From an uncultured Clostridia bacterium (GTDB taxonomy: Bacteria; Bacillota; Clostridia; Oscillospirales; Acutalibacteraceae), in assembly GCA_944380885.1 (NCBI GenBank), contig CALWIZ010000007.1, forward strand, positions 5,122 through 69,121: a stretch of 64,000 nucleotides of DNA, given 5' to 3'. Shown piece by piece: positions 5,789-43,163 of the stretch. The notes beneath the pieces were generated by a model. The model had not been told where the DNA came from. It was given only the letters and a program-made list of their open reading frames with translations, and ran no database searches. Each line of letters begins with the position of its first letter. Position 1 is the first letter of the stretch. The translations under genes and the position numbers were made by a program.

Positions 5789-7912
5789 ATGAAGAATATA
5801 TTAGTAAAAGCAGCAGCGCTTCTGCTTGTGATGACAGCGCTTAGTTCCGGTTTGACGGCATTTGCCCAAACTGCGGCATATGTTCCCTATACTACCTATA
5901 CATACAGCTATGACGGTGAGGCACAGGAAAGTCCTAACGCTTTTGTGCCGGTTGAAAGATATGACGCTACGTCGCTTGGAACTGCGGAGCTTAAAAACCC
6001 AAGCGATTTGTTTGTTGATACTGAAAGCGGCAGGGTTTATATAGCCGATACCGGCAATAACCGTATTCTGATACTGGATAACAGCCTCAAACTCATAAAT
6101 ATTTTTTCGGAATTTGAAAACACCGAAAAGGGAGGCATGGATAAGTTTAACGGACCGCAGGGGGTTTTTGTTTCCTCACGTGGGCATGTATTTGTGGCGG
6201 ATACCGAAAACGGCCGTATTGTGGAATTTGATGCTCAGTTAAAAATGATTCGGATTTTAACCGAGCCGGTTTCGCCTTTTTGGCCTGAAGATATGTCTTT
6301 TAAGCCGATAGCACTGGTTGTGGACAGCGGAAACCGCATTTACGCCCTTTCCCAGAATATGAACGAGGGTGTTGTGAATTTAAGCGAAACCGGCGAATTT
6401 TTAGGATTTTACGGTGCTCAGAAGGTTCAACAAAGCATTTTCGACTGGTTTACTCAGCTTTTTCAGAATGAGGAAAAAAGCAAGCGTACCGTAAAAACCG
6501 TGCCGCGTGTTTATAACAGTATCGCAATAGACAGCCGTGATTTTGTATGGTTGACCGCGAACTCGATTGAAAAGCAGGATCAGATAGATTATATGACCTC
6601 AAAGTCTCTGACAAGCGCGCCGATAAAGCGTCTTAATCCCAAGGGAGACGATGTGCTTTTCCGAAATGCGAAATGGGCTCCGGGCGGCGACCTCGGTGAA
6701 GAGCCTTCAAGCATCGTAGATGTTACCATGAAGGACAACGGAATATATTCGATACTTGACAGTAACAAGAATAAAATTTTCACTTATGACAATAACGGCA
6801 ACCTGCTTTATGCCTTCGGCGCTTCGGGACAGCAGTTGGGAACTTTCAATCTCTGCACATCGATTTCCTACTTCGGTAATGATTTGCTGGTGCTTGATAA
6901 GGGCAACGGCACTATTACGCGTTTGGAACAGACTGATTACGGCGCTTTGATAGAAAGAGCGATAGTCGCAGATGCCAACCGTGAATTTGAAGAATCGCTT
7001 GAATGCTGGAATTCGGTTTTAAAGCAGAATCAGAATTTTGATATGGCATATACCGGAATTGCCGACGCTTTTCTGCGCAACGGCGATTACGAGGAAGCAA
7101 TGGAATATTTTAAAACCGCCCGTGATACTGAAAACTACTCAAGAGCTTTCAAAAGCTACCGTTCTGAATTTGTACGTGAAAATCTGATTTACATAGTTTT
7201 GGTTGTATGCGCGGTATTAGCGGTATTTTTCATTGTCAACAAGAAAATCAAAAAATTCAACAATAAGTTTTATTATTCTGACAGCAAACACACGCTGCTT
7301 GACGAATTCCTTTATTCGTTTTACAGTATTTATCACCCGATGAAGGGCGCATGGTGTATAAAGGCGGAAAGACGGGGCAGCGTCCGGGCGGCGCATATTA
7401 TAAATCTTCTTGTTATAGCGACCTTTATTTTCAAGGGCATAGGAACAGGATATATTTTCAATAATGTGTTGATTCAGAATTTTGATATTGTACGCACGGT
7501 CTTAAGTGTTGTTCTGCCAATACTTTTATGGTGTGTTTCAAGCTGGTCATTAACTACATTGTGCGGCGGCGAGGGAAATATCAAACAGATATATGTTGCC
7601 ACTTCTTATTCGCTTATGCCGCTTGTCGTGATAAATATACCAATGACCATTATAAGCAACTTTCTCGCAATAGAAGAGCAGGCGTTTCTGACCTTTATGA
7701 TTTTTCTTTCTTTTGCGTGGAGTCTGCTGCTGATTTTTGCATCTACAATGACAATACATGATTATACAATGGGCAAAAATCTGTTTACGGTAATTCTTTC
7801 GGTTGTGGGAATGCTTATAATACTTTTCCTTGCGATACTGCTGATTATTCTTTCGAATAAGATAGTTTCTTTCATACAGCAGATTTACGAGGAAGTAATC
7901 AACCGTTTATAA
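5789..7912 (+). CDS. secreted NHL-repeat beta-propeller + TPR + C-terminal Yip1-type multi-pass membrane domain protein
   Basis: Signal peptide MKNILVKAAALLLVMTALSSGLTAFAQ. NHL-type repeats GRVYIADTGNNRILILD and GHVFVADTENGRIVEFD. TPR-like segment WNSVLKQNQNFDMAYTGIADAFLRNGDYEEAMEYFKTA. About 5 TM helices follow from roughly residue 470 with Yip1-like spacing. Confidence 0.7.
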   Translation: MKNILVKAAALLLVMTALSSGLTAFAQTAAYVPYTTYTYSYDGEAQESPNAFVPVERYDATSLGTAELKNPSDLFVDTESGRVYIADTGNNRILILDNSLKLINIFSEFENTEKGGMDKFNGPQGVFVSSRGHVFVADTENGRIVEFDAQLKMIRILTEPVSPFWPEDMSFKPIALVVDSGNRIYALSQNMNEGVVNLSETGEFLGFYGAQKVQQSIFDWFTQLFQNEEKSKRTVKTVPRVYNSIAIDSRDFVWLTANSIEKQDQIDYMTSKSLTSAPIKRLNPKGDDVLFRNAKWAPGGDLGEEPSSIVDVTMKDNGIYSILDSNKNKIFTYDNNGNLLYAFGASGQQLGTFNLCTSISYFGNDLLVLDKGNGTITRLEQTDYGALIERAIVADANREFEESLECWNSVLKQNQNFDMAYTGIADAFLRNGDYEEAMEYFKTARDTENYSRAFKSYRSEFVRENLIYIVLVVCAVLAVFFIVNKKIKKFNNKFYYSDSKHTLLDEFLYSFYSIYHPMKGAWCIKAERRGSVRAAHIINLLVIATFIFKGIGTGYIFNNVLIQNFDIVRTVLSVVLPILLWCVSSWSLTTLCGGEGNIKQIYVATSYSLMPLVVINIPMTIISNFLAIEEQAFLTFMIFLSFAWSLLLIFASTMTIHDYTMGKNLFTVILSVVGMLIILFLAILLIILSNKIVSFIQQIYEEVINRL

Positions 7913-7923
7913 AGGAGATTGTT

Positions 7924-10539
7924 ATGAGAATACAAAAATTCAATTATGTATTGCGTTCGATCTGTCTGATGTTGATTGCAGGTATGTTAAGCTGTTTGGT
8001 CGCTGTTGGCACTTCCGGAAATGGAGAAGAAAGTGCCTCCGGCACATCTGCGCCGGATTTATCAAAGCACGGCATGTATGCCGGCAGCTCTGAAATGCTT
8101 GGCAATATGCAGCGTATAGCAACTTCAGGCGAATTAGAGCTTTATGCTAACAAAGAAACAGCTGAGATAGCGGTGCGCGATGTTTCCTCGGGCGAGGTGT
8201 GGTCCGCAATTCCGTATGACTACAATAAAGACGGTAAAGCCAGTGATGAAACCAAGGCGTCGCTCGCGTCCTTTATCAGTCTTACATATTACGATTCTGC
8301 CAGCAAGGAATACACGATGAACGGATATGAAGACTGTATTTCACGCGGACAGTTTGAATTTGAGACGATTGACAACGGTGTACGAATAAATATGCAAATC
8401 GGAACTCTCAAGGATCAGTTTAACGTCCCGTTTGCGGCAGAGGCCGAGCGTTTTGAGGAAAAGGTTTTAAGCAAACTTTCAGGTATAGCGAAACGCAGAG
8501 TGGAGGCGTTTTACACCAAATATTCCGCAGATGATGAAAAACTTGATTCGGAAGTGAAAGAAAGACTTTTGAATCTTTATCCGGGGCTTGCCGACTTTGA
8601 CTTTTATATTCTGCGCGACGACGCGACAGAACGCGATATTTCGGTTTTAAACGGATATATTTCCGAAACCGATTATACTGCAGAGGATTATAATGACGAC
8701 GCGAAAAAATCAGGTTCAGCCGAGCGCGGAGAAGCGGCGGCGTTATTTGAAATTCCGATTGAATTTTATTTGAGCGATAACAGCTTGGTTGTGAACATTA
8801 ACGCAAAAGAAATTTCTTACGACAAATCGTCTTTTGTGCTTAATAAAATCAGACTTATGGAATATTTCGGAGCCGGCAAATCGGTTAATTCCGGGTACAT
8901 TTTTGTACCGGACGGTTCAGGCAGTATTATAAACTTTAATACCGATGGGACAAAGAAAATTTTAAACACTGTAAACAGAGTTTACGGTCAGGACTATACG
9001 CTCTTGCAGAAGAATGAATATCAAAACCTTTCTGAACAGGCTTATCTTCCTGTTTTTGGGATAAAAGAGAATAACAGGGCATTTGTAGGCATTATTGAAG
9101 ACGGAGACGCGATGTCTCAGATCGTAAGCCAGTCAGGCAATATAATTTCAGGGTATGAAACCGTTTCAGCTGAGTTTAACTACGCGGTGGTACAGAGCTA
9201 CCTGTATGAGGACGGCAAAAAACAAAACGGTCAGTGGACATATATCAGCAAGGATTATTATGATGGAAATTACACAATCCGCTATAAATTCATGACCGGT
9301 GAGGATGCGGGATATGTCGGCATGGCAAAAGTATACCGTGATTATCTCATAAAAAACGGCAGTCTTAAAAAGCTTGAAAAGACAGATGATTCAGCCTTTT
9401 ATCTTGAGGTAATAGGTCTTATTACCCGCAAAGATTCGTTTTTCGGAATACCCTATAATAAAAAGATAGCAGTTACAAGCTTTTCAGACGCTGTCGAGCT
9501 TATGGAAGACCTGAAAGAAAACGGCGTAACAAATATCAAGCTGCGTTATAAGGGCTGGGCAAACGGAGGATTTAACAATACCGTGCCTTCTAAGGCGACA
9601 CCGGAAAAGAAGCTCGGAGGAAAAGACGGATTAGAAAGCCTTGCGGAATATATAAAGAAAAATAATTACTCGCTTTTCCTTGATGTCAACTTCCATATAG
9701 TGAGAAATAATAAATTATTTGACAGCTTTGTTCCGTTGTTTGATTCACCTCGTTCAAATGACGACAATATTGTGGCGATGACCCCGCCTGAAGAGCTGAA
9801 CAATATTTCCGCAGAACAGAATTTCTATTATGCGATAAAGCCTTCCAAGATGGGGGATTACTATTCGTCGTATTTTGATAGTTATAAAAAATACGGCATC
9901 GGAGCATCCTCGATTTCATATGCGGGCAATATGCTTTATTCCGATTTTGATAAGGATAACGGTGTGACGCGTCAAAAATCGCTTGAAATGCTTAAAGAAA
10001 ATTTGAATAACAACTCGGAAGCAATAGGAGATCTTCTTACAGACGGCGGCAATGCCTATATATTCCCGTATGCAGGCGATATACTTAATATTCCGCTATC
10101 TGACAGCGGAAATATCGTTGAGGACGAAAGCGTTCCGTTTATGCAGATAGTGCTTCACGGATACATACAGTATGCGGGAGCCGCTGTTAATCTTTCTGAT
10201 AATCTTCAGATATCGCTGCTGAAAAGCGCTGAATACGGAGCCAATCTTTATTTTACGCTCGGATATGAAAATACCGGCGCGCTTAAGGATACATCTCTTT
10301 CTTATATGTATTCGATAGATTACAGTACGTGGAAAAGCGATATCGTAAGCCTTTACAAAAAGTATAACAGCGTTTTTGCCACACTTCAGAATCAGGCTAT
10401 CAAAGGCCATGAAAAGCTGGCGGAAAATGTTTATAAAACTACTTATGAAGACGGCACTCAGGTGGCGGTAAACTACGGTGATAATGCGGTCAGAGTGAAC
10501 GGAAAGACCGTTGACGCTATGGATTTTGCCGTAGTCTGA
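7924..10539 (+). CDS. large exported protein of unknown function (DUF5696-like, recalled from memory)
   Basis: 871 aa, good RBS AAGGAG, N-terminal anchor LMLIAGMLSCLVAVG. I recognise no catalytic motif. Gene neighbourhoods of giant SBP, 2 permeases, a YIP1-family protein and this protein recur in Firmicutes annotations as DUF5696. I cannot verify this without a search. Confidence 0.5.
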   Translation: MRIQKFNYVLRSICLMLIAGMLSCLVAVGTSGNGEESASGTSAPDLSKHGMYAGSSEMLGNMQRIATSGELELYANKETAEIAVRDVSSGEVWSAIPYDYNKDGKASDETKASLASFISLTYYDSASKEYTMNGYEDCISRGQFEFETIDNGVRINMQIGTLKDQFNVPFAAEAERFEEKVLSKLSGIAKRRVEAFYTKYSADDEKLDSEVKERLLNLYPGLADFDFYILRDDATERDISVLNGYISETDYTAEDYNDDAKKSGSAERGEAAALFEIPIEFYLSDNSLVVNINAKEISYDKSSFVLNKIRLMEYFGAGKSVNSGYIFVPDGSGSIINFNTDGTKKILNTVNRVYGQDYTLLQKNEYQNLSEQAYLPVFGIKENNRAFVGIIEDGDAMSQIVSQSGNIISGYETVSAEFNYAVVQSYLYEDGKKQNGQWTYISKDYYDGNYTIRYKFMTGEDAGYVGMAKVYRDYLIKNGSLKKLEKTDDSAFYLEVIGLITRKDSFFGIPYNKKIAVTSFSDAVELMEDLKENGVTNIKLRYKGWANGGFNNTVPSKATPEKKLGGKDGLESLAEYIKKNNYSLFLDVNFHIVRNNKLFDSFVPLFDSPRSNDDNIVAMTPPEELNNISAEQNFYYAIKPSKMGDYYSSYFDSYKKYGIGASSISYAGNMLYSDFDKDNGVTRQKSLEMLKENLNNNSEAIGDLLTDGGNAYIFPYAGDILNIPLSDSGNIVEDESVPFMQIVLHGYIQYAGAAVNLSDNLQISLLKSAEYGANLYFTLGYENTGALKDTSLSYMYSIDYSTWKSDIVSLYKKYNSVFATLQNQAIKGHEKLAENVYKTTYEDGTQVAVNYGDNAVRVNGKTVDAMDFAVV

Positions 10540-31156: not shown

Positions 31157-31164
31157 CATTTTGC

Positions 31165-31263
31165 AATTCAGGGAGCTTGATGAAACTCAGGCTGAGAGGG
31201 AGTCCGTCTTTTGACTATGGCTCCGACCTGCGACCTGATACGGATAATGCCGTCGTAGGGAAA
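31165..31263 (+). promoter_or_regulatory. TPP (thiamine pyrophosphate) riboswitch aptamer
   Basis: Conserved cores ...GGGAGC...CTGAGAGGG... and ...ACCTGATACGGATAATGCCGTCGTAGGGA. It is followed by its own terminator and then thiT. Confidence 0.85.
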
Positions 31264-31279
31264 TACACAAAATGTATTG

Positions 31280-31370: not shown

Positions 31371-31955
31371 ATGGAAATGAAAAACAAACCTGTTTACAAA
31401 CTTGCTTTAAGCGCTATATTTGTGGCGCTCGCTACCGGACTCAGCTTTATTAAGATATGGGAAATGCCGCTCGGCGGCTCAATAACGCTTCTCAGCATGC
31501 TTCCTATCGTTATGATATCTATTATGCTGGGACTTAAATGGGGAATAGGCAGCGCGTTCGTTTATTCGCTTATCCAGCTTATGTTCGGTATATCTGAGGT
31601 GCTTAGCTGGGGTCTTACGCCTGTAATGCTTGTCGGCACAATGCTGCTCGATTACATACTTCCCTTTACGGTTCTCGGCGTGGCGGGAGCGTTTGTAAAA
31701 AAAGGCTACGCGGGAATCTGCGCCGGCGTTGTTCTTGCACTCGGACTGAGATTTTTAAGCCATTTTCTGTCAGGTGTTATTATTTTCCGGAATCTTGAGC
31801 AGTTTAAACTTTTCGGAACACTTTTTGCCAACCGTCCGTATCTTTATTCCTTCTGCTACAACGGATTTTATATGATTCCGGAAATAATCATCACCACAAT
31901 AGCTGCTGTAATTCTTTTCCGTATGTCTTCGGTCAAGAAGCTGATGGCGCAGTAA
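31371..31955 (+). CDS. thiT: ECF-type thiamine transporter S component ThiT
   Basis: 194 aa, 6 TM. N-terminus KLALSAIFVALATGLSFIKIWEMPLGGSITLLSMLPI. RBS AAGGAGAG. Sits downstream of the TPP riboswitch. Confidence 0.8.
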   Translation: MEMKNKPVYKLALSAIFVALATGLSFIKIWEMPLGGSITLLSMLPIVMISIMLGLKWGIGSAFVYSLIQLMFGISEVLSWGLTPVMLVGTMLLDYILPFTVLGVAGAFVKKGYAGICAGVVLALGLRFLSHFLSGVIIFRNLEQFKLFGTLFANRPYLYSFCYNGFYMIPEIIITTIAAVILFRMSSVKKLMAQ

Positions 31956-33473: not shown

Positions 33474-33502
33474 TTGACATAATAAAAAAGCGGTGTTATA
33501 CT
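33474..33502 (+). promoter_or_regulatory. sigma-A promoter (TTGACA-17-TATACT) for T-box leader 1
   Basis: TTGACA at 33474-33479 and TATACT at 33497-33502. Confidence 0.65.
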
Positions 33503-33508
33503 ATTTGA

Positions 33509-33783
33509 AAATGATAAAGGCATTGACGAAGACGGTCCGGAATGACTGCTTTAAGAGAGCCGGTGGTTGGTGTGAACCGGCAGTACGTATTCCAGAGTGA
33601 CCCATCGCTTCCGAGCCGGAGCACTGAATTCGCAAGACAGTAGGTTCTCCCGTGATTGCTGCGTAAAGGCATAGGGATTGTTGGATCCCAAGAGGTGGCG
33701 GCTTTCATGCCGCAATTTGAGTGGTACCGCGGATGTATTTTCACACCCGTCTCAAGGATTTCTTGAGACGGGTGTTTTTATTT
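33509..33783 (+). promoter_or_regulatory. T-box riboswitch leader 1 (inferred specifier AUC, Ile)
   Basis: GA/K-turn TTGACGAAGA paired with CTTCCGAGCC. AG bulge AAGAGAG. Distal loop GGTTGGTGTGAA. T-box sequence AATTTGAGTGGTACCGCGG at 33713-33731. Terminator CACCCGTCTCAAG-5 nt-CTTGAGACGGGTG plus TTTTT at 33744-33779. Candidate specifier ATC at 33604-33606, followed by G and then the CTTC strand of the basal helix. Confidence 0.8.
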
Positions 33784-33803: not shown

Positions 33804-36074
33804 ATGGCAACAGTATCAACCGACAGTCAGCTTAAAGAGGTTGCGGTGAGAATCCGCGAAATGCGTGAGATATGCGGCATTTCCGAGGCCGATATGGCGC
33901 AGAAGACGGAGGTAAGCGTAGAAGAATACAGACTTTACGAGGAAGGAAAAAAGGATTTTCCTTTCACCTTTATACATAAATGCTCGCTGGCGTTCGGCAT
34001 AGGCATTACCGACCTGCTTGAAGGACAGAGCGCTCATCTTTCTTCCTACACTGTTACCCGCAAGGGTCATGGACAGCAGACCGCCAAAGAGGACGGAATA
34101 GAAATACAGAACTTAGCCCCGCTTTTCAGAAAAAAGATAGCCGAGCCGTACTGGGTAAGATATGAGTATCATTCCGAGCTTCAGGATAAGCCGATACATC
34201 TTACAAATCATTCCGGTCAGGAGTTCGACTTTGTAATGAGCGGCAGGCTCAAGGTTCAGATAGGTGAAAATGTTGAGTATCTGAGCGAGGGAGACAGTAT
34301 CTATTACAACTCTTCCACGCCTCACGGAATGATAGCCGTTGACGGCAGGGACTGCCTGTTTGTTGCTGTGGTGCTCCCCGGTGAGGACGTAAAGGAGGAC
34401 ATAATCCGCGGAACGATAGTTTCGGCTCATTCGGGAACAAAGGAATATGTTTCCTCAAAGTTCATCGATACGGTTGAGGACGAGAACGGCGTGCTTCAGA
34501 AGATAGACTTCAAAAATGAGGATAAGTTCAATTTTGCTTTTGACATTGTCGATGCGATAGCCAAAAAGGAACCCGACAAGCTGGCGATGCTCCATATAGA
34601 TAAAAACAAGACTGAGCGCAGATTTACCTTTAACGATATGAAGCGTGCCTCCAACCAGTGTGCCAACTATTTCAAGTCGCTTGGCATAAAGAAGGGCGAC
34701 AGGGTAATGCTGGTACTTAAAAGGCACTATCAGTTCTGGTACGCAATACTGGCGCTTCACAAGCTCGGAGCGATAGCGATACCCGCTACCAACCTTCTGC
34801 AGCAGCACGACTTTGAGTACCGCTTCAACGCGGCGGACGTAAGCGCCATAGTCTGCACCGCCGACGGGGACGCAGCGCATCAGGTGGATCTGGCGGAGCC
34901 TTCAAGCCCGACGCTTAAGACCAAGATACTCGTAGGCGGCAAGCGTGACGGCTGGCACGACTTTGACGAGGAGTTTCCGCTGTTCAGCGCGCATTTCTAC
35001 CGCACCGAGGACACCGCCTGCGGCGACGACCTTATGCTTATGTTCTTTACATCAGGAACCACGGGATACCCGAAGATAGCCGCCCACAGCTACAAATACG
35101 CGCTCGGACACTACATAACCGCCAAATACTGGCACGGTGTTGACGAAAACGGATTGCACTTTACAATATCCGAGACCGGCTGGGGCAAGGCGCTCTGGGG
35201 CAAGCTGTACGGTCAGTGGCTCTGCGAGGGCGCGGTATTCACCTACGACTTTGACCGCTTTGACGCGTCGGATATACTCCCTATGTTTGCGAAATACAAC
35301 ATCACAACCTTCTGCGCTCCGCCGACAATGCTGCGCATGATGATAAAGGAGGACATATCAAAGTACGACCTTTCGTCGATAAAGCATATGACCACAGCAG
35401 GCGAGGCGCTTAACCCGGAGGTTTACAGGCAGTTTGAAAAGGCGACCGGCCTTCAGATAATGGAGGGCTTCGGTCAGACCGAGCTGACGCTCGTTATTGC
35501 AAACCTTATGGGTAATCCCCACAAACTCGGATCGATGGGTATGCCTACCCCGCTTTACGATGTCGATATACTTGATCCTGACGGAAATCCGGTACCTGAC
35601 GGCGAGACCGGCGAAATAGTTGTAAAGACCTCAGAGAAAGTTCCCTGCGGCCTATTCAAGGGCTATTACAAGAACGAGGAAAAGACAAAAGAGGTATGGC
35701 ACGACGGTTATTATCACACCGGAGATACCGCGTGGAGAGACGAGGACGGCTTTTACTGGTATGTCGGCCGTGTGGACGATGTTATTAAGTCATCGGGCTA
35801 CCGCATAGGGCCGTTCGAGATAGAGAGCGTAATAATGGAGCTTCCTTATGTGCTTGAGTGCGGAGTTTCCGCTGCGCCCGACGAGATACGCGGTCAGGTG
35901 GTAAAGGCGAGTATCGTGCTTGTAAAGGGCACCGAGGGTACGGAAGAGCTTAAAAAGGAAATCCAGAACTATGTAAAGCAGCACACCGCGCCTTACAAGT
36001 ATCCGAGGATAGTAGAGTTCAAGACTGAGCTGCCTAAGACCATAAGCGGAAAGATCCAGCGTAATAAGCTGTAA
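33804..36074 (+). CDS. tri-domain fusion: XRE-type HTH + cupin + AMP-forming (medium/short-chain) acyl-CoA synthetase, paralog 1
   Basis: Start at ATG 33804 after AAAGGAGG; the track start 33678 lies inside the T-box leader. HTH: LKEVAVRIREMREICGISEADMAQKTEVSVEEYRLYEEG. Cupin: HSGQEFDFVMSGRLKVQIGE...GDSIYYNSSTPHGM. Adenylation motifs MFFTSGTTGYPK, YHTGDTAW, SGYRIGPFEIES, and the C-terminal PKTISGKIQR. Confidence 0.85.
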   Translation: MATVSTDSQLKEVAVRIREMREICGISEADMAQKTEVSVEEYRLYEEGKKDFPFTFIHKCSLAFGIGITDLLEGQSAHLSSYTVTRKGHGQQTAKEDGIEIQNLAPLFRKKIAEPYWVRYEYHSELQDKPIHLTNHSGQEFDFVMSGRLKVQIGENVEYLSEGDSIYYNSSTPHGMIAVDGRDCLFVAVVLPGEDVKEDIIRGTIVSAHSGTKEYVSSKFIDTVEDENGVLQKIDFKNEDKFNFAFDIVDAIAKKEPDKLAMLHIDKNKTERRFTFNDMKRASNQCANYFKSLGIKKGDRVMLVLKRHYQFWYAILALHKLGAIAIPATNLLQQHDFEYRFNAADVSAIVCTADGDAAHQVDLAEPSSPTLKTKILVGGKRDGWHDFDEEFPLFSAHFYRTEDTACGDDLMLMFFTSGTTGYPKIAAHSYKYALGHYITAKYWHGVDENGLHFTISETGWGKALWGKLYGQWLCEGAVFTYDFDRFDASDILPMFAKYNITTFCAPPTMLRMMIKEDISKYDLSSIKHMTTAGEALNPEVYRQFEKATGLQIMEGFGQTELTLVIANLMGNPHKLGSMGMPTPLYDVDILDPDGNPVPDGETGEIVVKTSEKVPCGLFKGYYKNEEKTKEVWHDGYYHTGDTAWRDEDGFYWYVGRVDDVIKSSGYRIGPFEIESVIMELPYVLECGVSAAPDEIRGQVVKASIVLVKGTEGTEELKKEIQNYVKQHTAPYKYPRIVEFKTELPKTISGKIQRNKL

Positions 36075-36094
36075 AAGTATTTTATTTAAAAATA

Positions 36095-36123
36095 TTGACA
36101 AATTCCTTTTGTTGTGATAAGAT
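36095..36123 (+). promoter_or_regulatory. sigma-A promoter (TTGACA-17-TAAGAT) for T-box leader 2
   Basis: TTGACA at 36095-36100 and TAAGAT at 36118-36123, beginning 21 nt after the paralog-1 stop. Confidence 0.55.
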
Positions 36124-36129
36124 GTATTA

Positions 36130-36418
36130 CATCAAAATTCAAAGGCGCTGACGAAGAGGATACGGCTGATGCTTTTAAAGAGAGATAACGGTTGGTGTAA
36201 GTTATCAGAGAAAGGCCTGTATTTGTAGCTTCCGAGCCGGGAGGAAGAAAGTTTTTAACGAGTAGAACCTCCCCGTGACTGCTGCGTAAAGGCATAGGAA
36301 TTGTTTGATTCCAAGAGTGGCGGCTTTTCTGCCGCAATTTGAGTGGTACCGCGGGCTACCGATATATATGTATTTCGGCGCTCGTCTCAAAGTCATAACT
36401 TTGGGACGAGCGTTTTTT
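36130..36418 (+). promoter_or_regulatory. T-box riboswitch leader 2 (inferred specifier GUA, Val)
   Basis: Same architecture as leader 1. CTGACGAAGAGG paired with CTTCCGAGCC. AAAGAGAG. GGTTGGTGTAA. T-box sequence AATTTGAGTGGTACCGCGG at 36336-36354. Terminator CGCTCGTCTCAAAG-6 nt-CTTTGGGACGAGCG plus TTTTTT at 36379-36418. Candidate specifier GTA at 36225-36227, followed by G and CTTC. Confidence 0.8.
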
Positions 36419-36452
36419 CGTCCCGAAAGGCTGAAGCCGAGGAGGAAAAAGT

Positions 36453-38744
36453 ATGAAACAGATAACAGGGCTTGATTACAAAATCAAGGAAATGGCGGCG
36501 CGCATAAGGGAGTTGCGCGAGATTGAGGGACTTTCGGTTGCCGATATGGCACAAAAGACCGCCGTAAGCGAGGAGGAGTACACCGCCTGTGAAAACGGCG
36601 AGAGCGATTTAAACTTCGCTTTTATATACCGCTGCGCGCTTGCGTTCAATGTAGATGTCACCGATATTATAGAGGGTCAAAGCCCGACCCTGCGCTCCTA
36701 TACCGTAACGAGAAAGGGCGAGGGTCAGCGCATTGAAAAGGCGCACGGAATGACCTATTATAACCTTGCCGCCGCCTTCCAGAACAGGATAGCCGAGCCG
36801 CTTTACGTTAAAAGCGCTTACAGTGAGGAGGCGCAGCACCGTGATATTGAGCTTACCACTCATGCCGGTCAGGAATGTGACCTTATAATAGAGGGAAAGC
36901 TCAAGGTTCAGGTGGGCGAGCATAAGGAAATTTTAGGTCCGGGGGACAGTATTTATTACGACAGTTCAACTCCGCACGGAATGATAGCCGTTGACGGCAA
37001 GGACTGTATATTCTACGCGATAGTGCTTAACCCGACCGGTGAGCCTATCCCCGAGCTTGAGGACGAAAAGCCGGTCGCCCAGAATGTGGCGCCCCACACG
37101 CCGGACACCAAGAACAGAATATACAGAAAATACACCGAGGTCACAAAGGACGAAAACGGAACACCGGTTTCTATAAAGTTCAAGAATACCGAGCATTTCA
37201 ACTTCGCTTTTGACCTTGTGGACGCTCTGGCAGATAAGGACCCTGACAAGCTGGCGATGCTGCATATCTCAAAGGATAAGACCGAGCGCAGGCTGACCTT
37301 CAAGGATATGAAAAAGGCTTCCAATCAGTGCGCCAACTATTTCAAGTCCTTAGGCATAAGAAAAGGCGACCGCGTAATGCTGGTGCTTAAAAGGCATTAC
37401 CAGTTCTGGTACGCGATACTGGGGCTTCACAAGCTGGGAGCGATAGCGATACCCGCCACAAACCAGCTTCAGGAGCACGATTTTGAGTACCGCTTCAAAA
37501 CCGCCGGCGTTTCGGCGATAATCTGCACAGCCGACGGTGATACAGCTCATCAGGCGGATATAGCGGCGGCAAACTGTCCTGAGCTTAAGCATAAGCTGAT
37601 AGTAAACGGCACGCGTGAGGGCTGGCGCCCGTTTGACGAGGAGTACACCCTTTACAGCACCCATTACAACCGTCCGGACGACGCCCCCGGAGGGGACGAC
37701 CTTATGCTGATGTTCTTTACGTCGGGAACAAGCGGATACCCGAAAATCGCCGCTCACAACTATAAATATGCCCTCGGACATTTCCACACGGCGAAATACT
37801 GGCACAACGTCGATCCTGACGGACTGCACTTTACCATTTCGGATACCGGCTGGGCAAAGGCGATGTGGGGCAAGCTGTACGGTCAGTGGCTCTGCGAGGC
37901 GGCTACTTTCGTTTACGATTTCGACCGGTTTGACGCGGCGGATATTCTTCCGATGTTCGCGAAATACAATATAACCACCTTCTGCGCGCCGCCTACGATG
38001 CTCAGAATGATGATAAAGCAGGATATCTCAAAGTACGATTTCTCGTCTGTTAAGCATATGACCACAGCGGGCGAGGCGCTGAACCCCGAGGTTTACAGGC
38101 AGTTTGAAAAGGCCACGGGTCTTCAGATACTGGAGGGCTTCGGACAGAGCGAAAGCACCATGATAATCGGCAATATGACCGGCGCACCGCATAAGATAGG
38201 CTCAATGGGCAAGCCGGCGCCGATTTACGATGTGGATATAGTGGATTCCGACGGCAACCCGGTACCTCCCGGAGAGACCGGTGAAATAGTCATAAACATT
38301 AAAAACGGTTATCCATGCGGTCTTGCCGTAGGTTATTACGGCGACGAAGAAAAGACAAAGGAAACATGGCGCGACGGATATTACCACACCGGCGACACCG
38401 CGTGGAAGGACGAGGACGGCTTTTACTGGTACGTTGGCCGCGTGGACGATGTTATCAAGTCTTCGGGCTACCGCATAGGGCCGTTCGAGATAGAAAGCGT
38501 TATAATGGAGCTTCCTTATGTGCTTGAGTGCGGCGTTTCGGCGGCTCCCGACCCGGTGCGCGGTCAGGTGGTAAAGGCGAGCATAGTTCTTGTTGACGGA
38601 ACAGAGGGCACTGAGGAGCTTAAAAAGGAAATCCAGAATTACGTAAAGCAGCATACCGCGCCTTACAAGTATCCGCGTATAGTAGTATTCAGAGACAGTC
38701 TTCCTAAAACTACCAGCGGAAAAATTCAGCGTAATAAGTTATAA
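36453..38744 (+). CDS. tri-domain fusion: XRE-type HTH + cupin + AMP-forming acyl-CoA synthetase, paralog 2
   Basis: 763 aa, collinear with paralog 1. The C-terminal halves are nearly identical in places (ILPMFAKYNITTFCAPPTMLRMMIK, YHTGDTAW.DEDGFYWYVGRVDDVIKSSGYRIGPFEIESVIMELPYVLECGVSAAPD). The inter-domain linker and mid-region are more divergent. Confidence 0.85.
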   Translation: MKQITGLDYKIKEMAARIRELREIEGLSVADMAQKTAVSEEEYTACENGESDLNFAFIYRCALAFNVDVTDIIEGQSPTLRSYTVTRKGEGQRIEKAHGMTYYNLAAAFQNRIAEPLYVKSAYSEEAQHRDIELTTHAGQECDLIIEGKLKVQVGEHKEILGPGDSIYYDSSTPHGMIAVDGKDCIFYAIVLNPTGEPIPELEDEKPVAQNVAPHTPDTKNRIYRKYTEVTKDENGTPVSIKFKNTEHFNFAFDLVDALADKDPDKLAMLHISKDKTERRLTFKDMKKASNQCANYFKSLGIRKGDRVMLVLKRHYQFWYAILGLHKLGAIAIPATNQLQEHDFEYRFKTAGVSAIICTADGDTAHQADIAAANCPELKHKLIVNGTREGWRPFDEEYTLYSTHYNRPDDAPGGDDLMLMFFTSGTSGYPKIAAHNYKYALGHFHTAKYWHNVDPDGLHFTISDTGWAKAMWGKLYGQWLCEAATFVYDFDRFDAADILPMFAKYNITTFCAPPTMLRMMIKQDISKYDFSSVKHMTTAGEALNPEVYRQFEKATGLQILEGFGQSESTMIIGNMTGAPHKIGSMGKPAPIYDVDIVDSDGNPVPPGETGEIVINIKNGYPCGLAVGYYGDEEKTKETWRDGYYHTGDTAWKDEDGFYWYVGRVDDVIKSSGYRIGPFEIESVIMELPYVLECGVSAAPDPVRGQVVKASIVLVDGTEGTEELKKEIQNYVKQHTAPYKYPRIVVFRDSLPKTTSGKIQRNKL

Positions 38745-38776: not shown

Positions 38777-39439
38777 ATGGATTACAAACGACTGACCCTC
38801 ATCTGCGGCCATTACGGCAGCGGAAAGACAAACGTCGCCGTAAATCTTGCGTTTGACCTTAAAAGGCAGTATAATAAAACATCGATAGCGGACCTTGATA
38901 TAGTTAATCCCTACTTCCGCACAAAGGACAGCATGGAAGAGCTTGAAAGGGCGGGAATAGAGCTTATCTGCTCGGATTACGCCGGAACGAATGTGGATAT
39001 TCCGGCTCTGCCTCAGCAGATGTATTCGATAACCGACGACCGCTCAAAAAAGGTGATACTCGATATAGGGGGAGACGACCGCGGCGCTCTGGCGCTTGGG
39101 AGGCTTGCTCCGGCGATACTTGCCGAAAACGATTACGAGATGCTTATGGTGATAAACCGGTTCCGTCCGCTCACAAGGGACGCGCGTTCCACGGTAGAGG
39201 TAATGCGTGAAATCGAGTACGCGGGGGGCATACCCTTTACGGGGCTTGTAAACAACTCAAATCTGGGCGAGGAGACGACAGCGGAGGATATTCTTTCTTC
39301 GGTTACTTATGCCAATGAGGTATCACGGCTTTCCTCACTGCCGGTAATTTGCACTACCGTACACGACACGGTTTATGCCGCTGTCGCGGGTAAAATAAAT
39401 AATTTATTCCCGTTAAAGCTCCAGCCGAAAATAGGCTGA
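38777..39439 (+). CDS. small SIMIBI/MinD-ParA-like P-loop NTPase of unknown role
   Basis: N-terminal deviant Walker A ICGHYGSGKTNVAVNLA, then DLDIVNPYF and ILDIGGDD. 220 aa. No CxC metal motif of CooC type. RBS GGGAGGAAG. Confidence 0.6.
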   Translation: MDYKRLTLICGHYGSGKTNVAVNLAFDLKRQYNKTSIADLDIVNPYFRTKDSMEELERAGIELICSDYAGTNVDIPALPQQMYSITDDRSKKVILDIGGDDRGALALGRLAPAILAENDYEMLMVINRFRPLTRDARSTVEVMREIEYAGGIPFTGLVNNSNLGEETTAEDILSSVTYANEVSRLSSLPVICTTVHDTVYAAVAGKINNLFPLKLQPKIG

Positions 39440-39465: not shown

Positions 39466-39678
39466 TTGAAAATGGCTAAGCTGACATTCAAAACCGATAA
39501 CTGCAAGGGCTGCGGACTGTGCGTAGACGCCTGTCCGAAGCATGTTCTGCAGTTGGCGGCGGACAAGATCAACAAAAAAGGACATCATCCGGTCGAGGCG
39601 GTAAAGGAAGACGAGTGCATCGCCTGCGCTTTCTGCGCCACAATGTGCCCCGACTGCATAATAAAAATAGAGAGGTAA
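39466..39678 (+). CDS. 2-oxoacid:ferredoxin oxidoreductase delta subunit (2x[4Fe-4S] ferredoxin)
   Basis: 70 aa with CKGCGLCVDACP and CIACAFCATMCP. Confidence 0.85.
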   Translation: MKMAKLTFKTDNCKGCGLCVDACPKHVLQLAADKINKKGHHPVEAVKEDECIACAFCATMCPDCIIKIER

Positions 39679-39687
39679 GTGAAAAAT

Positions 39688-40755
39688 ATGTCAGAAAAGG
39701 TTTTGATGAAGGGCAACGAGGCGCTGGCGGAAGCCGCCATAATCGCCGGCTGCCGTCATTATTTCGGTTATCCCATAACCCCGCAGACCGAGGTTGCCGC
39801 CTATATGGCAAAGAGAATGCCGAAAATCGGCGGAACATTTTTACAGGCTGAAAGCGAGATTGCCGCAATAAATATGGTTTACGGCGTATCCTCGACCGGC
39901 CACAGGGTCATGACATCGTCTTCAAGCCCAGGAATTTCGCTTAAGGGCGAGGGACTTTCCTATCTTGCCGGTTCAGATCTTCCGGCGCTTGTAATCAACG
40001 TACAGCGCGGCGGCCCGGGACTCGGCGGAATACAGCCGTCGCAGTCGGACTATTTTCAGGCTACAAAGGGCGGCGCACACGGCGACTTCCATATGATAGT
40101 TCTGGCGCCCGCTTCGGTTCAGGAAATGGCTGACCTTACCGTAAAGGGCTTTGAGCTTGCCGATAAATACCGTATGACCTCTATGGTTCTGGCGGACGGT
40201 ACTATGGGTCAGATGATGGAACCTGTTTCGCTTGAATACGATATAAAGCCTGCCCCCGAAAAGCCGTGGGCGACTACGGGAACAAAAATGCAGAGAGAGC
40301 ATAACATTATAAATTCGCTTTCACTTGTTCCCGAAGAGCTTGAGAGGTTAAATATAGAGCGCTACAAGAGATATGACGAGGTCGAGAAAAATGAGGTCAT
40401 GTACGAGGAGTATATGATGGACGACGCCGAGATCTGCATAGCGGCGTTCGGTATTGCCGCCCGTGTCTCAAAGAACGCGATTACCGAGGCGAGAAGACAG
40501 GGCATAAAGGCCGGTATGATAAGACCGATAACCCTCTGGCCGTTCCCGAAGGCGCCGTTTAAAAAAGCGGCTAAGAGCGTAAAGCAGTTTATTTCTGTTG
40601 AGCTTTCAATGGGACAGATGATAGAGGACGTTCGTCTGGCGACCGAATGCAGAGTGCCCGTAACTCTCTGCAACCGCGTGGGCGGTATGATACCGTCGCC
40701 TGAGATGGTACTTGAGGCTATTAAGGAAGCCGCGAAAAACGGAGGTGCAAGATAA
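39688..40755 (+). CDS. vorB: 2-oxoacid:ferredoxin oxidoreductase alpha subunit (VorB-like)
   Basis: Start taken at ATG 39688 (MSEKVLMKGNEALAEAAIIAGC...); GTG 39679 is an alternative. The ~355-aa size and N-terminal KGNEA..EAAI.AG pattern fit the KorA/VorB/PorA family. Confidence 0.8.
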   Translation: MSEKVLMKGNEALAEAAIIAGCRHYFGYPITPQTEVAAYMAKRMPKIGGTFLQAESEIAAINMVYGVSSTGHRVMTSSSSPGISLKGEGLSYLAGSDLPALVINVQRGGPGLGGIQPSQSDYFQATKGGAHGDFHMIVLAPASVQEMADLTVKGFELADKYRMTSMVLADGTMGQMMEPVSLEYDIKPAPEKPWATTGTKMQREHNIINSLSLVPEELERLNIERYKRYDEVEKNEVMYEEYMMDDAEICIAAFGIAARVSKNAITEARRQGIKAGMIRPITLWPFPKAPFKKAAKSVKQFISVELSMGQMIEDVRLATECRVPVTLCNRVGGMIPSPEMVLEAIKEAAKNGGAR

Positions 40756-41510
40756 TGGTAGTATTTGAAAAACCACACGCGCTGACAGATGTGCCGATGC
40801 ACTACTGCCCGGGCTGTACGCACGGTATAGTTCACCGCCTTGTCGCCGAGGTTATAGACGAGTTAGGGATAGAGGGAAAGACGGTTGGAATAGCGCCGGT
40901 CGGCTGTTCGGTTATGGCGTACAATTACTTTAACTGCGATATGATAGAGGCGGCTCACGGCCGCGCTCCGGCAGTCGCCACAGGCGTTAAGCGTGCCGAG
41001 CCGGACAATATCGTGTTTACATATCAGGGCGACGGAGATCTTGCGTCAATCGGTACCGCCGAAACGGTACATTCCGCCGCGAGAAACGAGAATATAACCG
41101 TTATATTCATAAACAACGCGATTTACGGTATGACCGGCGGACAGATGGCTCCTACCTCTCTGCCCGGTCAGGTGACCCAGACCTCTCCCTACGGCAGGGA
41201 CGTAAAGCTCTGCGGCTACCCGGTAAAGGTCTGCGAAATGCTTTCACAGCTTGACGGACCGGAATACCTTGAGCGTGTTGCGGTAAATAACGTAAAGAAT
41301 ATAAAGAACGCTAAAAAGGCAATTAAAAAAGCGTTCCAGAATCAGATAGACGGCAAGGGATTTTCGCTTGTCGAGGTAATCTCAAGCTGCCCGACAAACT
41401 GGGGTCTTACTCCGCAGAACGCGCTCAAATGGATAGACGAAAAAATGATACCATATTACCCGCTGGGCGTTTATAAAGACCGCTCTGCCGCCAAGGAGGA
41501 AACGAAATGA
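40755..41510 (+). CDS. 2-oxoacid:ferredoxin oxidoreductase beta subunit (TPP-binding)
   Basis: YCPGCTHGIVHR, GDGDLASIG, NNAIYGMTGGQ. The start overlaps the alpha-subunit stop. Confidence 0.85.
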   Translation: MVVFEKPHALTDVPMHYCPGCTHGIVHRLVAEVIDELGIEGKTVGIAPVGCSVMAYNYFNCDMIEAAHGRAPAVATGVKRAEPDNIVFTYQGDGDLASIGTAETVHSAARNENITVIFINNAIYGMTGGQMAPTSLPGQVTQTSPYGRDVKLCGYPVKVCEMLSQLDGPEYLERVAVNNVKNIKNAKKAIKKAFQNQIDGKGFSLVEVISSCPTNWGLTPQNALKWIDEKMIPYYPLGVYKDRSAAKEETK

Positions 41511-42052
41511 GTACAACACAGTTTTTGTTTGCCGGATTCGGCGGTCAGGGTATACTCTTCGCCGGAAAATTCGCGGCGTATAAGGGACTTATCGGGGAAA
41601 AGCAGGTGAGCTGGCTGCCGTCATACGGACCCGAAATGCGCGGTGGCACAGCGAGCTGCAGCGTTATTATAAGCGATGAGCCGGTAGGCTCTCCTATCGT
41701 TTCAAAGCCTGATGTGCTTATTGCCATGAACCTGCCCTCGCTTGACAGGTACGAAAGCGCTGTTGCCGTGGGAGGAACCATTTTTGTTGATTCCACTCTT
41801 ATCGACCGCAAGGTTGAGCGTGACGATGTCGCGGTTTACTATGTCCCGGCGACCCGTCTTGCAAGCGATAACGGTATGCCGACACTTGCCAATATGATAC
41901 TTATGGGAAATATTCTTAAGGTAATGAATGATTTTGACGAGGAAAGCGTTACCGAAGCACTTAAAAAGGTTGTTTCCGCGAAGCATGCGGATATGCTTGA
42001 TGTAAACCTTAAGGCGCTTAAAATAGGCGCTGAATATAAAGAGGAAGTGTAA
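41507..42052 (+). CDS. 2-oxoacid:ferredoxin oxidoreductase gamma subunit
   Basis: 181 aa, [14 protein letters not shown]...[10 protein letters not shown]. 4-nt overlap with the beta-subunit gene. Confidence 0.85.
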
Positions 42053-42055
42053 GTC

Positions 42056-43120
42056 ATGGAAATCAAGATTGTAAAAACCGATTCTCCCAAGGAAAAACCC
42101 GACAGCAGCACATTAGGCTTCGGAAAAATTTTCACCGACCATATGTTTATTATGGATTATTCGCGTGAGAAAGGTTGGCACGACGCGAGGATAGTACCGT
42201 TTGGCAATATTTCTCTGCACCCGGCGTCAACCGTACTGCATTACGGCTCCGAAATTTTTGAGGGTCTTAAAGCGTACCGCCGCGCGGACGGGAAGGTTCA
42301 GCTTTTCAGACCGATTGAAAATATCCGCAGAATGAATAATTCCGCTGAAAGACTCTGCCTGCCGCAGATAGACGAAAAGGACGCTATGCAGATACTTGAG
42401 ACTTTTGTTTCGCTTGAGCAGGACTGGACGCCGTCAGCTGAGGGAACTTCCCTTTACCTGCGCCCATTTATGTTCGGAAACGATGAGTCGCTGGGCGTTC
42501 ACGCGGTGCACAACGCGACTTATATGATTATCGCGTCTCCTGTCGGAAGCTATTATAAAGAGGGCATAAACCCCGTAAAGATTATGATAGAGGACGAGGA
42601 CGTGCGCGCGGTAAGAGGAGGCACAGGCTACGCCAAGTGCGGCGGAAACTATGCTGCCAGCAACCGCGCCGGCGAGAGAGCCGAGCAGAAGGGTTATTCT
42701 CAGGTGCTCTGGCTTGACGGCGTTGAGCGCAAGTATATAGAGGAAGTCGGCGCTATGAACGTTATGTTCAAAATCGGCGGCGAGATTGTAACCCCGAAGC
42801 TCACGGGTTCAATTCTTCCGGGAATCACCAGAAAGTCCTGCATTGAGGTGCTTAAAGACGAGGGCTATACCGTAAACGAGAGACTTTTAAGCGTTGACGA
42901 GCTTGGAGAGGCGCTTAAGAACGGAACGCTTGAGGAGGCATGGGGCTGCGGTACCGCGGCGGTCGTCTCCCCGATAGGCGAGCTTTGCTACAAGGACGTT
43001 AAATACACTATCAACAACGGCGAGATCGGCAAGGTCACACAGCATCTTTATGATACTCTCACCGGAATACAGTGGGGCAAAATCGAGGATAAGTACGGCT
43101 GGACATATCCGATTAAGTAA
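42056..43120 (+). CDS. ilvE: branched-chain amino acid aminotransferase
   Basis: 354 aa fold-type IV pattern: FTDHMF, LHYGSEIFEGLKAYR, LYLRPFMFG, GTGYAKCGGNYAAS, GITRKS. Confidence 0.9.
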   Translation: MEIKIVKTDSPKEKPDSSTLGFGKIFTDHMFIMDYSREKGWHDARIVPFGNISLHPASTVLHYGSEIFEGLKAYRRADGKVQLFRPIENIRRMNNSAERLCLPQIDEKDAMQILETFVSLEQDWTPSAEGTSLYLRPFMFGNDESLGVHAVHNATYMIIASPVGSYYKEGINPVKIMIEDEDVRAVRGGTGYAKCGGNYAASNRAGERAEQKGYSQVLWLDGVERKYIEEVGAMNVMFKIGGEIVTPKLTGSILPGITRKSCIEVLKDEGYTVNERLLSVDELGEALKNGTLEEAWGCGTAAVVSPIGELCYKDVKYTINNGEIGKVTQHLYDTLTGIQWGKIEDKYGWTYPIK

Positions 43121-43127
43121 CTAAAAA

Positions 43128-43163
43128 AAGCGTATCCGTTTTTTTGCGGATACGCTTTTATTT
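43128..43163 (+). terminator. rho-independent terminator after ilvE
   Basis: AAGCGTATCCG-loop TTTTTTTG-CGGATACGCTT followed by a T-rich tail. The same GCGTATCCG/CGGATACGC stem recurs after htpG. Confidence 0.85.

Follow-up and report, generated by a model that had tools for sequence, protein, structure and literature searches.

Introduction

The tyrS and glyQS leaders of Bacillus subtilis are examples of classical transcriptional T-boxes. In classical tandem arrangements, as in the thrZ and trp operons, several T-boxes lie back to back in one leader and usually carry the same specifier, and the gltX-cysE-cysS operon of B. subtilis has an internal T-box. The element considered here lies at positions 36095-36418 of a 64,000-nucleotide (nt) stretch of DNA from an uncultured Clostridia bacterium of the family Acutalibacteraceae (contig CALWIZ010000007.1, positions 5,122 to 69,121, forward strand), hereafter the window, to which all positions given without a locus name refer. 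This element comprises a predicted promoter (promoter 2) and a T-box leader (leader 2) and is located between two paralogous genes for AMP-forming acyl-CoA synthetases, of which the first (paralog 1) is preceded by a promoter and T-box leader of its own (promoter 1 and leader 1), whereas the second (paralog 2) is followed by genes for a P-loop NTPase, a four-subunit ferredoxin oxidoreductase and the aminotransferase IlvE. With a probability of about 85%, this region is a sigma-70-type promoter followed by a transcriptional tRNA-Val T-box that gates the genes from paralog 2 to ilvE, the two paralogs, and with them branched-chain fatty acid salvage, being split between isoleucine and valine. A second, valine-specific internal T-box had already been proposed from the letters of the DNA alone (the sequence-only reading), and the analysis presented here supports this proposal overall, with the response to tRNA and the pairing of paralogs with substrates standing as predictions.

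Leader 2 shares with the classical T-box (Rfam family RF00230) the parts of Stem I, Stem II, Stem IIA/B, Stem III, the UGGN bulge and the competition between antiterminator and terminator. It differs in its short specifier loop (5' AGG, 3' UUGUAG) without the AGUA/GAA S-turn, in its score of 85.9 bits and in an extra covarying hairpin ahead of Stem III, and there is no tRNA synthetase, de novo biosynthesis pathway or transporter among its targets. As with tandem T-boxes, several elements would act on one transcript, but a 2.3-kb gene and a promoter separate the two leaders and the specifiers differ. Operons of tRNA ligases in which a second gene is under the control of a T-box of different specificity have been described (Wels et al. 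2008, PMC2494555). As in internal-T-box operons, the T-box of the window lies between genes, upstream transcripts are predicted to enter it and the downstream genes would answer to another amino acid, but the genes concerned are recent paralogs, each with a copy of one duplicated promoter-leader cassette, and the specifiers appear to have been retuned to related amino acids. In the Bacillus cereus group, T-box duplication followed by a specifier switch serves paralogous transporters (Wels et al. 2008, PMC2494555). Leader duplication, specifier change and a specifier that predicts the substrate of the downstream paralog are common to both cases, but the genes of the window encode acyl-CoA synthetases that would feed a shared oxidoreductase and aminotransferase, not transporters, and the 3' halves of the leader pair are unusually alike within a genome in this lineage. 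Both paralogs are relatives of the branched short-chain acyl-CoA synthetases MacsMa (Methanosarcina acetivorans, PDB 3ETC) and MbcS (Staphylococcus aureus), from which they differ by an N-terminal helix-turn-helix (HTH)-cupin module of about 220 residues that has no counterpart in MacsMa and MbcS.

It is classical physiology that many Firmicutes of the rumen and gut require or exploit isobutyrate, 2-methylbutyrate and isovalerate for the synthesis of valine, isoleucine and leucine, and the direct carboxylation of such acids is an established route to valine and isoleucine as well as to leucine. In rumen cultures, leucine is reported to be made by direct carboxylation of isovalerate (PMC7356843). 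In full-text searches of a paper library, neither T-box control of genes for branched-chain fatty acid activation or reductive carboxylation nor this HTH-cupin-synthetase fusion was found, which is no proof of novelty; leader 2 appears to be a mechanistically ordinary transcriptional T-box with a new target pathway.

Results

Specifier codon and paralog identity

In the Rfam alignment, the codon slot (uuc and then a in the consensus, followed by the CCcu strand) is occupied by AUC-G-CUUC in leader 1 (33604-33611) and by GUA-G-CUUC in leader 2 (36225-36232), and this codon position corresponds in both leaders to the '+0' frame of TBDB (PMC7778990). In minimum-free-energy folds, the specifier bases of both Stem I regions are unpaired and lie beside the GAAG/CUUC lower stem. 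The sequence-only reading had placed GTA in the specifier position on the basis of a Stem I fold in which GAAG (36153-36156), AGG (36157-36159) and ATAC (36160-36163) are followed on the 3' side by GTAT (36219-36222), TT (36223-36224), GTA (36225-36227), G (36228) and CTTC (36229-36232). This fold is reproduced by minimum-free-energy folding at exactly these coordinates, and the model alignment and the fold both confirm the specifier. The sequence-only reading had named an identical specifier in both leaders as a result that would speak against it; the alignment gives AUC versus GUA.

A genome scan with one genome per species, seeded with diverse homologs from a 50%-cluster search, yielded 80 related loci, and three metagenome contigs were added. 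The 80 loci originate from metagenome-assembled genomes of Acutalibacteraceae, Oscillospiraceae, Ruminococcus and Christensenellaceae from ruminant, horse and human guts, and the nearest named genomes, metagenome-assembled genomes of Acutalibacteraceae and Oscillospiraceae, show at most 85% identity. Most loci have paralog 1, then paralog 2, the NTPase, VorDABC and IlvE; a few have ilvE ahead of the NTPase-Vor genes. In about 17 loci the Val-type cassette is present and no paralog 1 was found in the upstream sequence examined.

Clear links emerge between the specifier and the synthetase downstream of it. Specifiers were called with a scored parser, those of L018, L043, L045, L054, L063 and L015 being read by eye. 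Leaders of the paralog-1 type carried ATC in 52 of 52 loci, and those of the paralog-2 type carried a valine codon in about 71 of 72 loci (GTA in about 64, GTC in 6 and GTG in 1). In the profile of 70 Val-type orthologs, the first two bases are G and T in 100% of sequences, the third is A in 89%, C in 8% and G in 1%, and the next base is a purine in 99%. The triplet thus varies at its synonymous third position only, which is the signature of a triplet that is read as a valine codon. Among known T-boxes, AUC accounts for 0.99 of those for isoleucine, and those for valine favour A or C at the third position (PMC7778990).

The proteins follow the same division. A neighbour-joining tree built from 126 synthetases placed the 51 Ile-linked proteins without exception in one clade, together with a single Val-linked protein (that of L069), and by this measure the two paralogs represent separate clades that track the specifier. 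Eight alignment columns cleanly split Ile-linked from Val-linked proteins: seven are located in the HTH-cupin module (residues 58-117) and one in the catalytic domain.

Architecture of leader 2 and competing folds

The RF00230 model aligned over its full length (model positions 1-219) to leader 2 (E 3.6e-19 in a 701-nt search). This match, together with the paralogy to leader 1, bears out the earlier claim of a second complete T-box leader, and the coordinates given then for the paralog-1 stop, promoter, stems, T-box sequence and terminator all proved correct. Stem I contains the K-turn base, specifier loop, AG bulge and distal loop (model positions 1-103 and fold), and AGAGA and GGUGNRA are conserved in Stem I of the orthologs. 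The 19-nt segment AAUUUGAGUGGUACCGCGG (36336-36354) is a conserved T-box sequence with the UGGN bulge, and GTGGTACCGCG is near-invariant among the T-box sequences of the loci. The UGGU bulge fits a tRNA with discriminator base A73, with whose NCCA end it would pair.

With the terminator 3' arm omitted from the fold, UUUGAG, the 7-nt bulge UGGUACC and GCGGGC form an antiterminator by pairing with GCUCGU and CUCAAA. The antiterminator and terminator have nucleotides 36377-36391 in common, so that only one of them can form at a time. Among the terminator-like sites of the 11-kb scan, the terminator, a hairpin at 36377-36414 with six T's behind it, ranked first in strength (about -27 to -32 kcal/mol).

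To assess structural conservation, 65 distinct Val-type leaders were aligned and the leader 2 helices were mapped onto the alignment, with controls in which the partners were slid by 1-3 columns and with 500 shuffles. Standard pairs were present in 90.3% of cells versus 38-50% in the slid controls, a measure that is somewhat favoured because the structure was taken from one of the aligned sequences; this bias does not explain the two-sided changes observed at 42 of the 55 pairs. The covariation score was 0.418 versus 0.08-0.16 for the slid controls, and none of the 500 shuffles attained even one of the observed measures. The lower stem was paired in 100% and the distal helix in 92% of cells, both with compensatory changes, antiterminator helices 12 and 13 in 97-99%, and the terminator in 88.5% versus at most 53% in the slid controls. 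Covariation was seen in Stem I and Stem II as well as in the antiterminator and the terminator.

Two further features of the leaders emerged. The extra hairpin (GGAAU/AUUCC), located between Stem IIA/B and Stem III outside the Rfam consensus, is conserved and covaries strongly; one of its pairs is GC in 23, CG in 18, AU in 16 and UA in 6 sequences. In addition, leaders 1 and 2 share 90% identity over their 3' 86 nt (33641-33733 and 36263-36355), a segment that runs from Stem IIA/B to the T-box sequence. In 47 genomes, the median identity of the 3' parts of the two leaders within a genome was 0.78 versus 0.72-0.73 for leaders of the same type between genomes, and Stem I showed no such excess. 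This likeness hints at gene conversion, or else at constraints that the host imposes in common on the acceptor-sensing half of both leaders.

Promoter 2 and the extent of the regulated unit

The TTGACA box starts 20 nt past the paralog-1 stop and is followed, after a 17-nt spacer, by TAAGAT (36118-36123), with TGn at 36115-36117. In 37 of 45 tandem loci, the stretch from the paralog-1 stop to leader 2 contains a perfect TTGACA box and a TAnnnT -10 box at a spacing of exactly 17 nt, 12-34 nt ahead of the K-turn. Val-type leaders had a promoter score of at least 10 in 67 of 69 cases, a perfect -35 box in 60 and TGn in 61, and a promoter of this kind precedes 50 of the 51 Ile-type leaders. Judged by hexamers, spacing of 16-18 nt, distance to the RNA element and conservation, the site is predicted to be a sigma-70-type promoter, and the conservation supports the claim that leader 2 has a promoter of its own. 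The alignment of the two leaders of the window extends through the promoter; the duplicated unit is therefore promoter, leader and gene.

No terminator was found by the terminator scan between the paralog-1 stop and promoter 2 (36074-36095), and transcripts that pass the Ile switch are therefore expected to enter leader 2. Downstream of paralog 2, the intergenic gaps measure 0-33 nt and the 11-kb scan detected no convincing terminator before 43126. Since nothing of this kind separates paralog 2 from the oxidoreductase and ilvE genes, this block lies behind the second switch, as the sequence-only reading had it. The coordinates of all features are compiled in Table 1.

Table 1. Predicted features of the operon in the window and, in the last two rows, of related loci (given as locus:position)
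Feature	Position	Strand	Evidence or remark
Promoter 1, TTGACA-17-TATACT with TG extension	33474-33502	+	Promoter-like site scan
T-box leader 1, specifier AUC (Ile) 33604-33606, terminator 33743-33775	33514-33757	+	Rfam RF00230, 95.2 bits
Paralog 1, HTH-cupin-AMP-forming acyl-CoA synthetase, 756 amino acids, Ile-linked; TAA stop 36072-36074	33804-36074	+	Pfam HTH_19, Cupin_2, AMP-binding, AMP-binding_C
Promoter 2, -35 TTGACA 36095-36100, 17-nt spacer, extended -10 TGaTAAGAT 36115-36123; predicted start ~36130	36095-36123	+	Promoter-like site scan, conservation
T-box leader 2 up to antiterminator	36139-36392	+	Rfam RF00230, 85.9 bits, E 3.6e-19
Parts of leader 2	Stem I 36144-36238; Stem II ~36239-36275; extra hairpin 36297-36312; Stem III 36320-36335	+	
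Specifier GUA (Val), then purine G36228 and CUUC strand of lower stem	36225-36227	+	Model alignment, fold
T-box sequence AATTTGAGTGGTACCGCGG; UGGU bulge 36344-36347	36336-36354	+	Sequence, model alignment, fold
Antiterminator, UUUGAG:CUCAAA and GCGGGC:GCUCGU around 7-nt bulge	36338-36391	+	Fold
Intrinsic terminator, 17-bp stem 36377-36414 and U-tract to 36418	36377-36418	+	Terminator scan, fold, z-score -4.4
Paralog 2, HTH-cupin-AMP-forming acyl-CoA synthetase, 763 amino acids, Val-linked; ribosome-binding site AGGAGG 36440-36445	36453-38744	+	Pfam
P-loop NTPase (CbiA/MinD-like), conserved in operon	38777-39439	+	Pfam, comparative loci
Four-subunit 2-ketoisovalerate-type ferredoxin oxidoreductase	39466-42052	+	Pfam POR_N/PFOR_II, TPP_enzyme_C, POR; NCBIfam VorB
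Oxidoreductase subunits	delta 39466-39678; alpha 39679-40755; beta 40755-41510; gamma 41507-42052	+	
Branched-chain amino acid aminotransferase (ilvE), last operon gene	42056-43120	+	NCBIfam PRK13357
Hairpin terminator closing the operon, can act both ways	43126-43159	.	Terminator scan
Loci without internal switch, whole operon behind Ile switch alone	L029:5534-10277; L075:5548-10286; L079:5566-10289		
Loci with Leu T-box after ilvE	L009:7753; L010:9995; L015:14882; L016:15043; L023:15027; L043:15335; L048:15804; L065:6777		

Enzymes of the operon and predicted substrates

Paralogs 1 and 2 are 71% identical, and their catalytic domains are closest to MacsMa (PDB 3ETC, E 7e-185), an enzyme that prefers 2-methylbutyrate (PMC10455477). 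The top NCBIfam model for both was MbcS, with 437-452 bits, under its equivalog cut-off of 850. The alpha subunit of the oxidoreductase scored 539 bits with the VorB subfamily model (cut-off 399), all four subunits of the complex are encoded, and its delta subunit is a 70-residue ferredoxin-type protein. IlvE was assigned by PRK13357 (485 bits, cut-off 307) and TIGR01123 (400 bits, cut-off 250). With MacsMa as the closest solved enzyme, VorB and IlvE, the operon looks like a route from branched-chain acid to amino acid: it likely serves branched-chain fatty acid salvage, in which activation of the acid would give the acyl-CoA, reductive carboxylation the 2-keto acid and transamination the amino acid.

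Within the catalytic domain, the two clades show only one fixed difference, namely, Gly461 in paralog 1 (35184-35186) versus Ala468 in paralog 2 (37854-37856), in the motif GW[G/A]KAxWGK. By mapping through the YHTGD motif (431-435 in MacsMa numbering, 454-458 in the 3ETC chain), this position corresponds to MacsMa Gly255, four residues ahead of the acyl-pocket residue Trp259, which is critical for substrate binding (PMC10455477). The Ile-linked clade shares the glycine with MacsMa and the Val-linked clade has the bulkier alanine, which would fit a smaller pocket for isobutyrate and makes this position a candidate determinant of preference. We infer that paralog 2 serves valine, with isobutyrate as its substrate, and paralog 1 isoleucine, with 2-methylbutyrate.

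The N-terminal regions of both synthetases (33804-34460 and 36453-37130) comprise an XRE-type HTH and a cupin domain, and among solved structures this module is closest to small regulators of the HTH or HTH-cupin kind (1Y9Q, DdrOC). Its share of the clade-separating residues suggests that the module may recognise something paralog-specific. An enzyme that adenylates its substrate and acts as a repressor in the same polypeptide is known in BirA. Each synthetase might likewise be an enzyme and a sensor, its HTH-cupin module binding its own acid, acyl-AMP or amino acid and acting on DNA or on the enzyme. This idea, hinted at by seven of the eight clade-separating residues lying in the module, is doubtful. 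Two negative results argue against it: near promoters 1 and 2, candidate operators for the HTH domains were limited to low-complexity A/T palindromes, and around either promoter no conserved motif was detected beyond the two promoter boxes (-35 and -10) and an A-tract. If it were true, expression of each paralog would need two signals, namely, the substrate, perceived by the protein sensor, and the uncharged cognate tRNA, perceived by the T-box.

Side observations concern the neighbourhood of the operon. The P-loop NTPase gene adjoins the oxidoreductase genes in nearly all loci, and its product may assist the assembly of iron-sulfur clusters or of the enzyme complex. About 2 kb before the operon, a thiamine pyrophosphate (TPP) riboswitch (31159-31278, 60.1 bits, above the gathering score) is located upstream of a gene for a YuaJ/ThiT-type thiamine transporter (31371-31955); its proximity to an operon with a TPP-requiring oxidoreductase is probably a positional coincidence.

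Additional T-boxes were found in relatives. In eight loci (Table 1), a third T-box with a CUC (Leu) specifier is located after ilvE and before an open reading frame (ORF) of about 460 amino acids; the two ORFs tested, those of L010 and L048, contain HMGL-like and LeuA_dimer domains and are leuA-like. In the window there is no Leu T-box after ilvE. A divergent T-box with a Leu specifier (CUC or CUG) is present upstream of the operon in L006 (620-4879, minus strand) and similarly in L007, L021, L071, L072, L075-L077, L079 and L081, and is absent from the window. In L006 it precedes a 467-amino-acid gene and a gene for a fusion of about 840 amino acids, in which a xylose-isomerase-like TIM barrel (AP_endonuc_2) is joined to an AMP-forming synthetase. 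The same fusion was found in L075 and may be a third, leucine-linked acid-activating enzyme. A further T-box directly follows the Val-type synthetase of L044 (3000-3228); its loop CUGAAU gives GAA in the canonical frame and CUG one frame earlier, and the gene downstream is cut by the contig end.

Predicted regulatory logic

RNA polymerase is predicted to start near 36130 and to transcribe leader 2, where Stem I would offer GUA to the anticodon (UAC) of tRNA-Val. The free NCCA end of an uncharged tRNA would pair with the UGGU bulge and stabilise the antiterminator, and transcription would continue into paralog 2, the P-loop NTPase gene, the genes for the four oxidoreductase subunits and ilvE. 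With charged tRNA, the 17-bp terminator would form and transcription would end at about 36418. Transcripts from promoter 1 that have passed the Ile switch would cross paralog 1 into leader 2. With P1 and P2 for the output of the two promoters and r for the fraction of read-through, P1 x r(Ile) would describe, in outline, the expression of paralog 1, and (P2 + P1 x r(Ile)) x r(Val) that of paralog 2 and all genes after it up to ilvE. The statement of the sequence-only reading that read-through from promoter 1 needs both tRNAs to be uncharged agrees with the two switches and the absence of a terminator between them. Duplication of a promoter-leader-gene cassette gave rise to the unit, after which Stem I and the specifier (AUC to GUN) diverged along with the enzyme.

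Discussion

Several observations weigh against the reading of leader 2 as a valine-responsive switch that divides the two paralogs between isoleucine and valine. The 85.9 bits of leader 2 fall short of the Rfam gathering score of 93 bits, so that the scan of the whole window at this threshold lists leader 1 alone (95.2 bits) and an E-value scan of the region was needed to detect leader 2. The textbook AGUA/GAA S-turn is missing from the specifier loop. There are no tRNA genes within the window against which the anticodon and discriminator of the host could be matched. As to substrate specificity, the support from the catalytic domain amounts to one Gly/Ala difference. Isoleucine starvation alone would induce paralog 1 and raise the shared oxidoreductase and aminotransferase modestly, through basal read-through, which is a puzzle for an operon of this design. 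In three species (L029, L075 and L079), paralog 2 directly follows paralog 1 with neither a second T-box nor a promoter in between; their second genes retain the Val-type residue signature, and the internal switch is not universal. Finally, the sole exception to the link between specifier and paralog is L066, where the parser and the Rfam alignment both give CUG (Leu) for the leader of a Val-type synthetase (7678-7940). This case looks like a natural specifier switch; the L066 operon contains the oxidoreductase and ilvE genes and lacks paralog 1.

The low Rfam score was placed in context by eight related loci (L004, L006, L016, L023, L048, L051, L057 and L074), in which the gathering threshold was passed by three of eight Val-type and three of eight Ile-type leaders; 10 of the 16 synthetase leaders fell under it. 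Because low scores are common across related leaders, the shortfall of leader 2 is typical of the subfamily and does not indicate decay, and routine threshold-based annotation under-reports most of this T-box subfamily. That leader 2 is a decaying, non-functional duplicate, with the genes from paralog 2 onward expressed constitutively or by read-through, is the least probable of the alternatives considered. Its position under the gathering cut-off, a 24-nt insertion in the antiterminator loop and the relatives that do without an internal element would be in line with decay, but all structural elements have been kept with compensatory changes in 65 species, the specifier changes are synonymous only and, with 17 bp, about -27 to -32 kcal/mol and a z-score of -4.4, the terminator is a strong one. 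A related suggestion, that leader 2 is a real T-box without a promoter of its own and only attenuates, from within the operon, transcription begun at promoter 1, has somewhat more in its favour and is still unlikely. In this case TTGACA-17-TAAGAT would be a chance match, and promoter-like matches are indeed frequent in AT-rich intergenic DNA: 27 were found in 11 kb versus 10.9 expected by chance, so that a single match is weak evidence, the -10 box of the window matches four of six positions, and the site alone reaches p ~0.045 versus shuffles of the same region. Against chance speak the perfect -35 box at equal spacing in the 37 of 45 tandem loci, which belong to different species and usually show an extended -10 box, the presence of the same promoter at Val-type leaders for which no paralog-1 gene was found in the upstream flank, and the fact that the promoter belongs to the duplicated cassette.

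Other alternatives accept the switch and question what it reads or what it controls. The specifier might be read in another frame, as UGU (Cys, 36224-36226) or UUG (Leu, 36223-36225), or the leader might respond to two tRNAs. A T precedes GUA in 94% of orthologs, so that UGU is largely conserved too, and T-boxes with alternative frames have been reported (PMC7778990). GUN, however, is present in 100% of orthologs with a third base that varies only synonymously, and L074 and L076 have C or G ahead of the codon, so that UGU is lost and GUC is kept. UGU represents 0.00 of known Cys T-boxes (PMC7778990), the canonical frame, a codon and one purine beside the helix, gives GUA in the Rfam alignment and the fold, and the genes downstream are predicted to make branched-chain amino acids, all of which renders a different reading frame or a response to two tRNAs highly improbable. 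Slightly less remote, although very unlikely as well, is a catabolic operon that converts branched-chain amino acids via keto acids and acyl-CoAs into acids, in which case the T-boxes would be no measure of biosynthetic demand. Ketoisovalerate oxidoreductases of the four-subunit type and IlvE can work in both directions, and in other gut bacteria such enzymes are reported to run oxidatively, with branched-chain fatty acids as products. Induction of T-boxes by uncharged cognate tRNA is, however, the opposite of what catabolism would need (PMC7778990 and established knowledge), AMP-forming synthetases push the reaction from acid to acyl-CoA and not in reverse, as is general enzymology, and direct carboxylation of isovalerate to give leucine has been reported in rumen cultures (PMC7356843). 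The Leu T-box and leuA-like gene after ilvE in eight relatives (two ORFs tested) also point away from catabolism and fit 2-ketoisovalerate as a biosynthetic intermediate.

The preferred reading, a promoter and tRNA-Val T-box in front of the genes from paralog 2 to ilvE, has several implications. The operon proposes genes of Oscillospirales for the pathway from branched-chain acid to amino acid, namely, a synthetase, a ferredoxin oxidoreductase and an aminotransferase. Its two specifiers predict which paralog serves which amino acid, which is a testable prediction for a pathway that is widespread in gut and rumen. The locus also illustrates cleanly, in a natural setting, the duplication of a promoter-riboswitch-gene cassette and its retuning via one codon-sized element. 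Most likely, this gut bacterium would be able to induce the salvage of branched-chain fatty acids into isoleucine and into valine separately.

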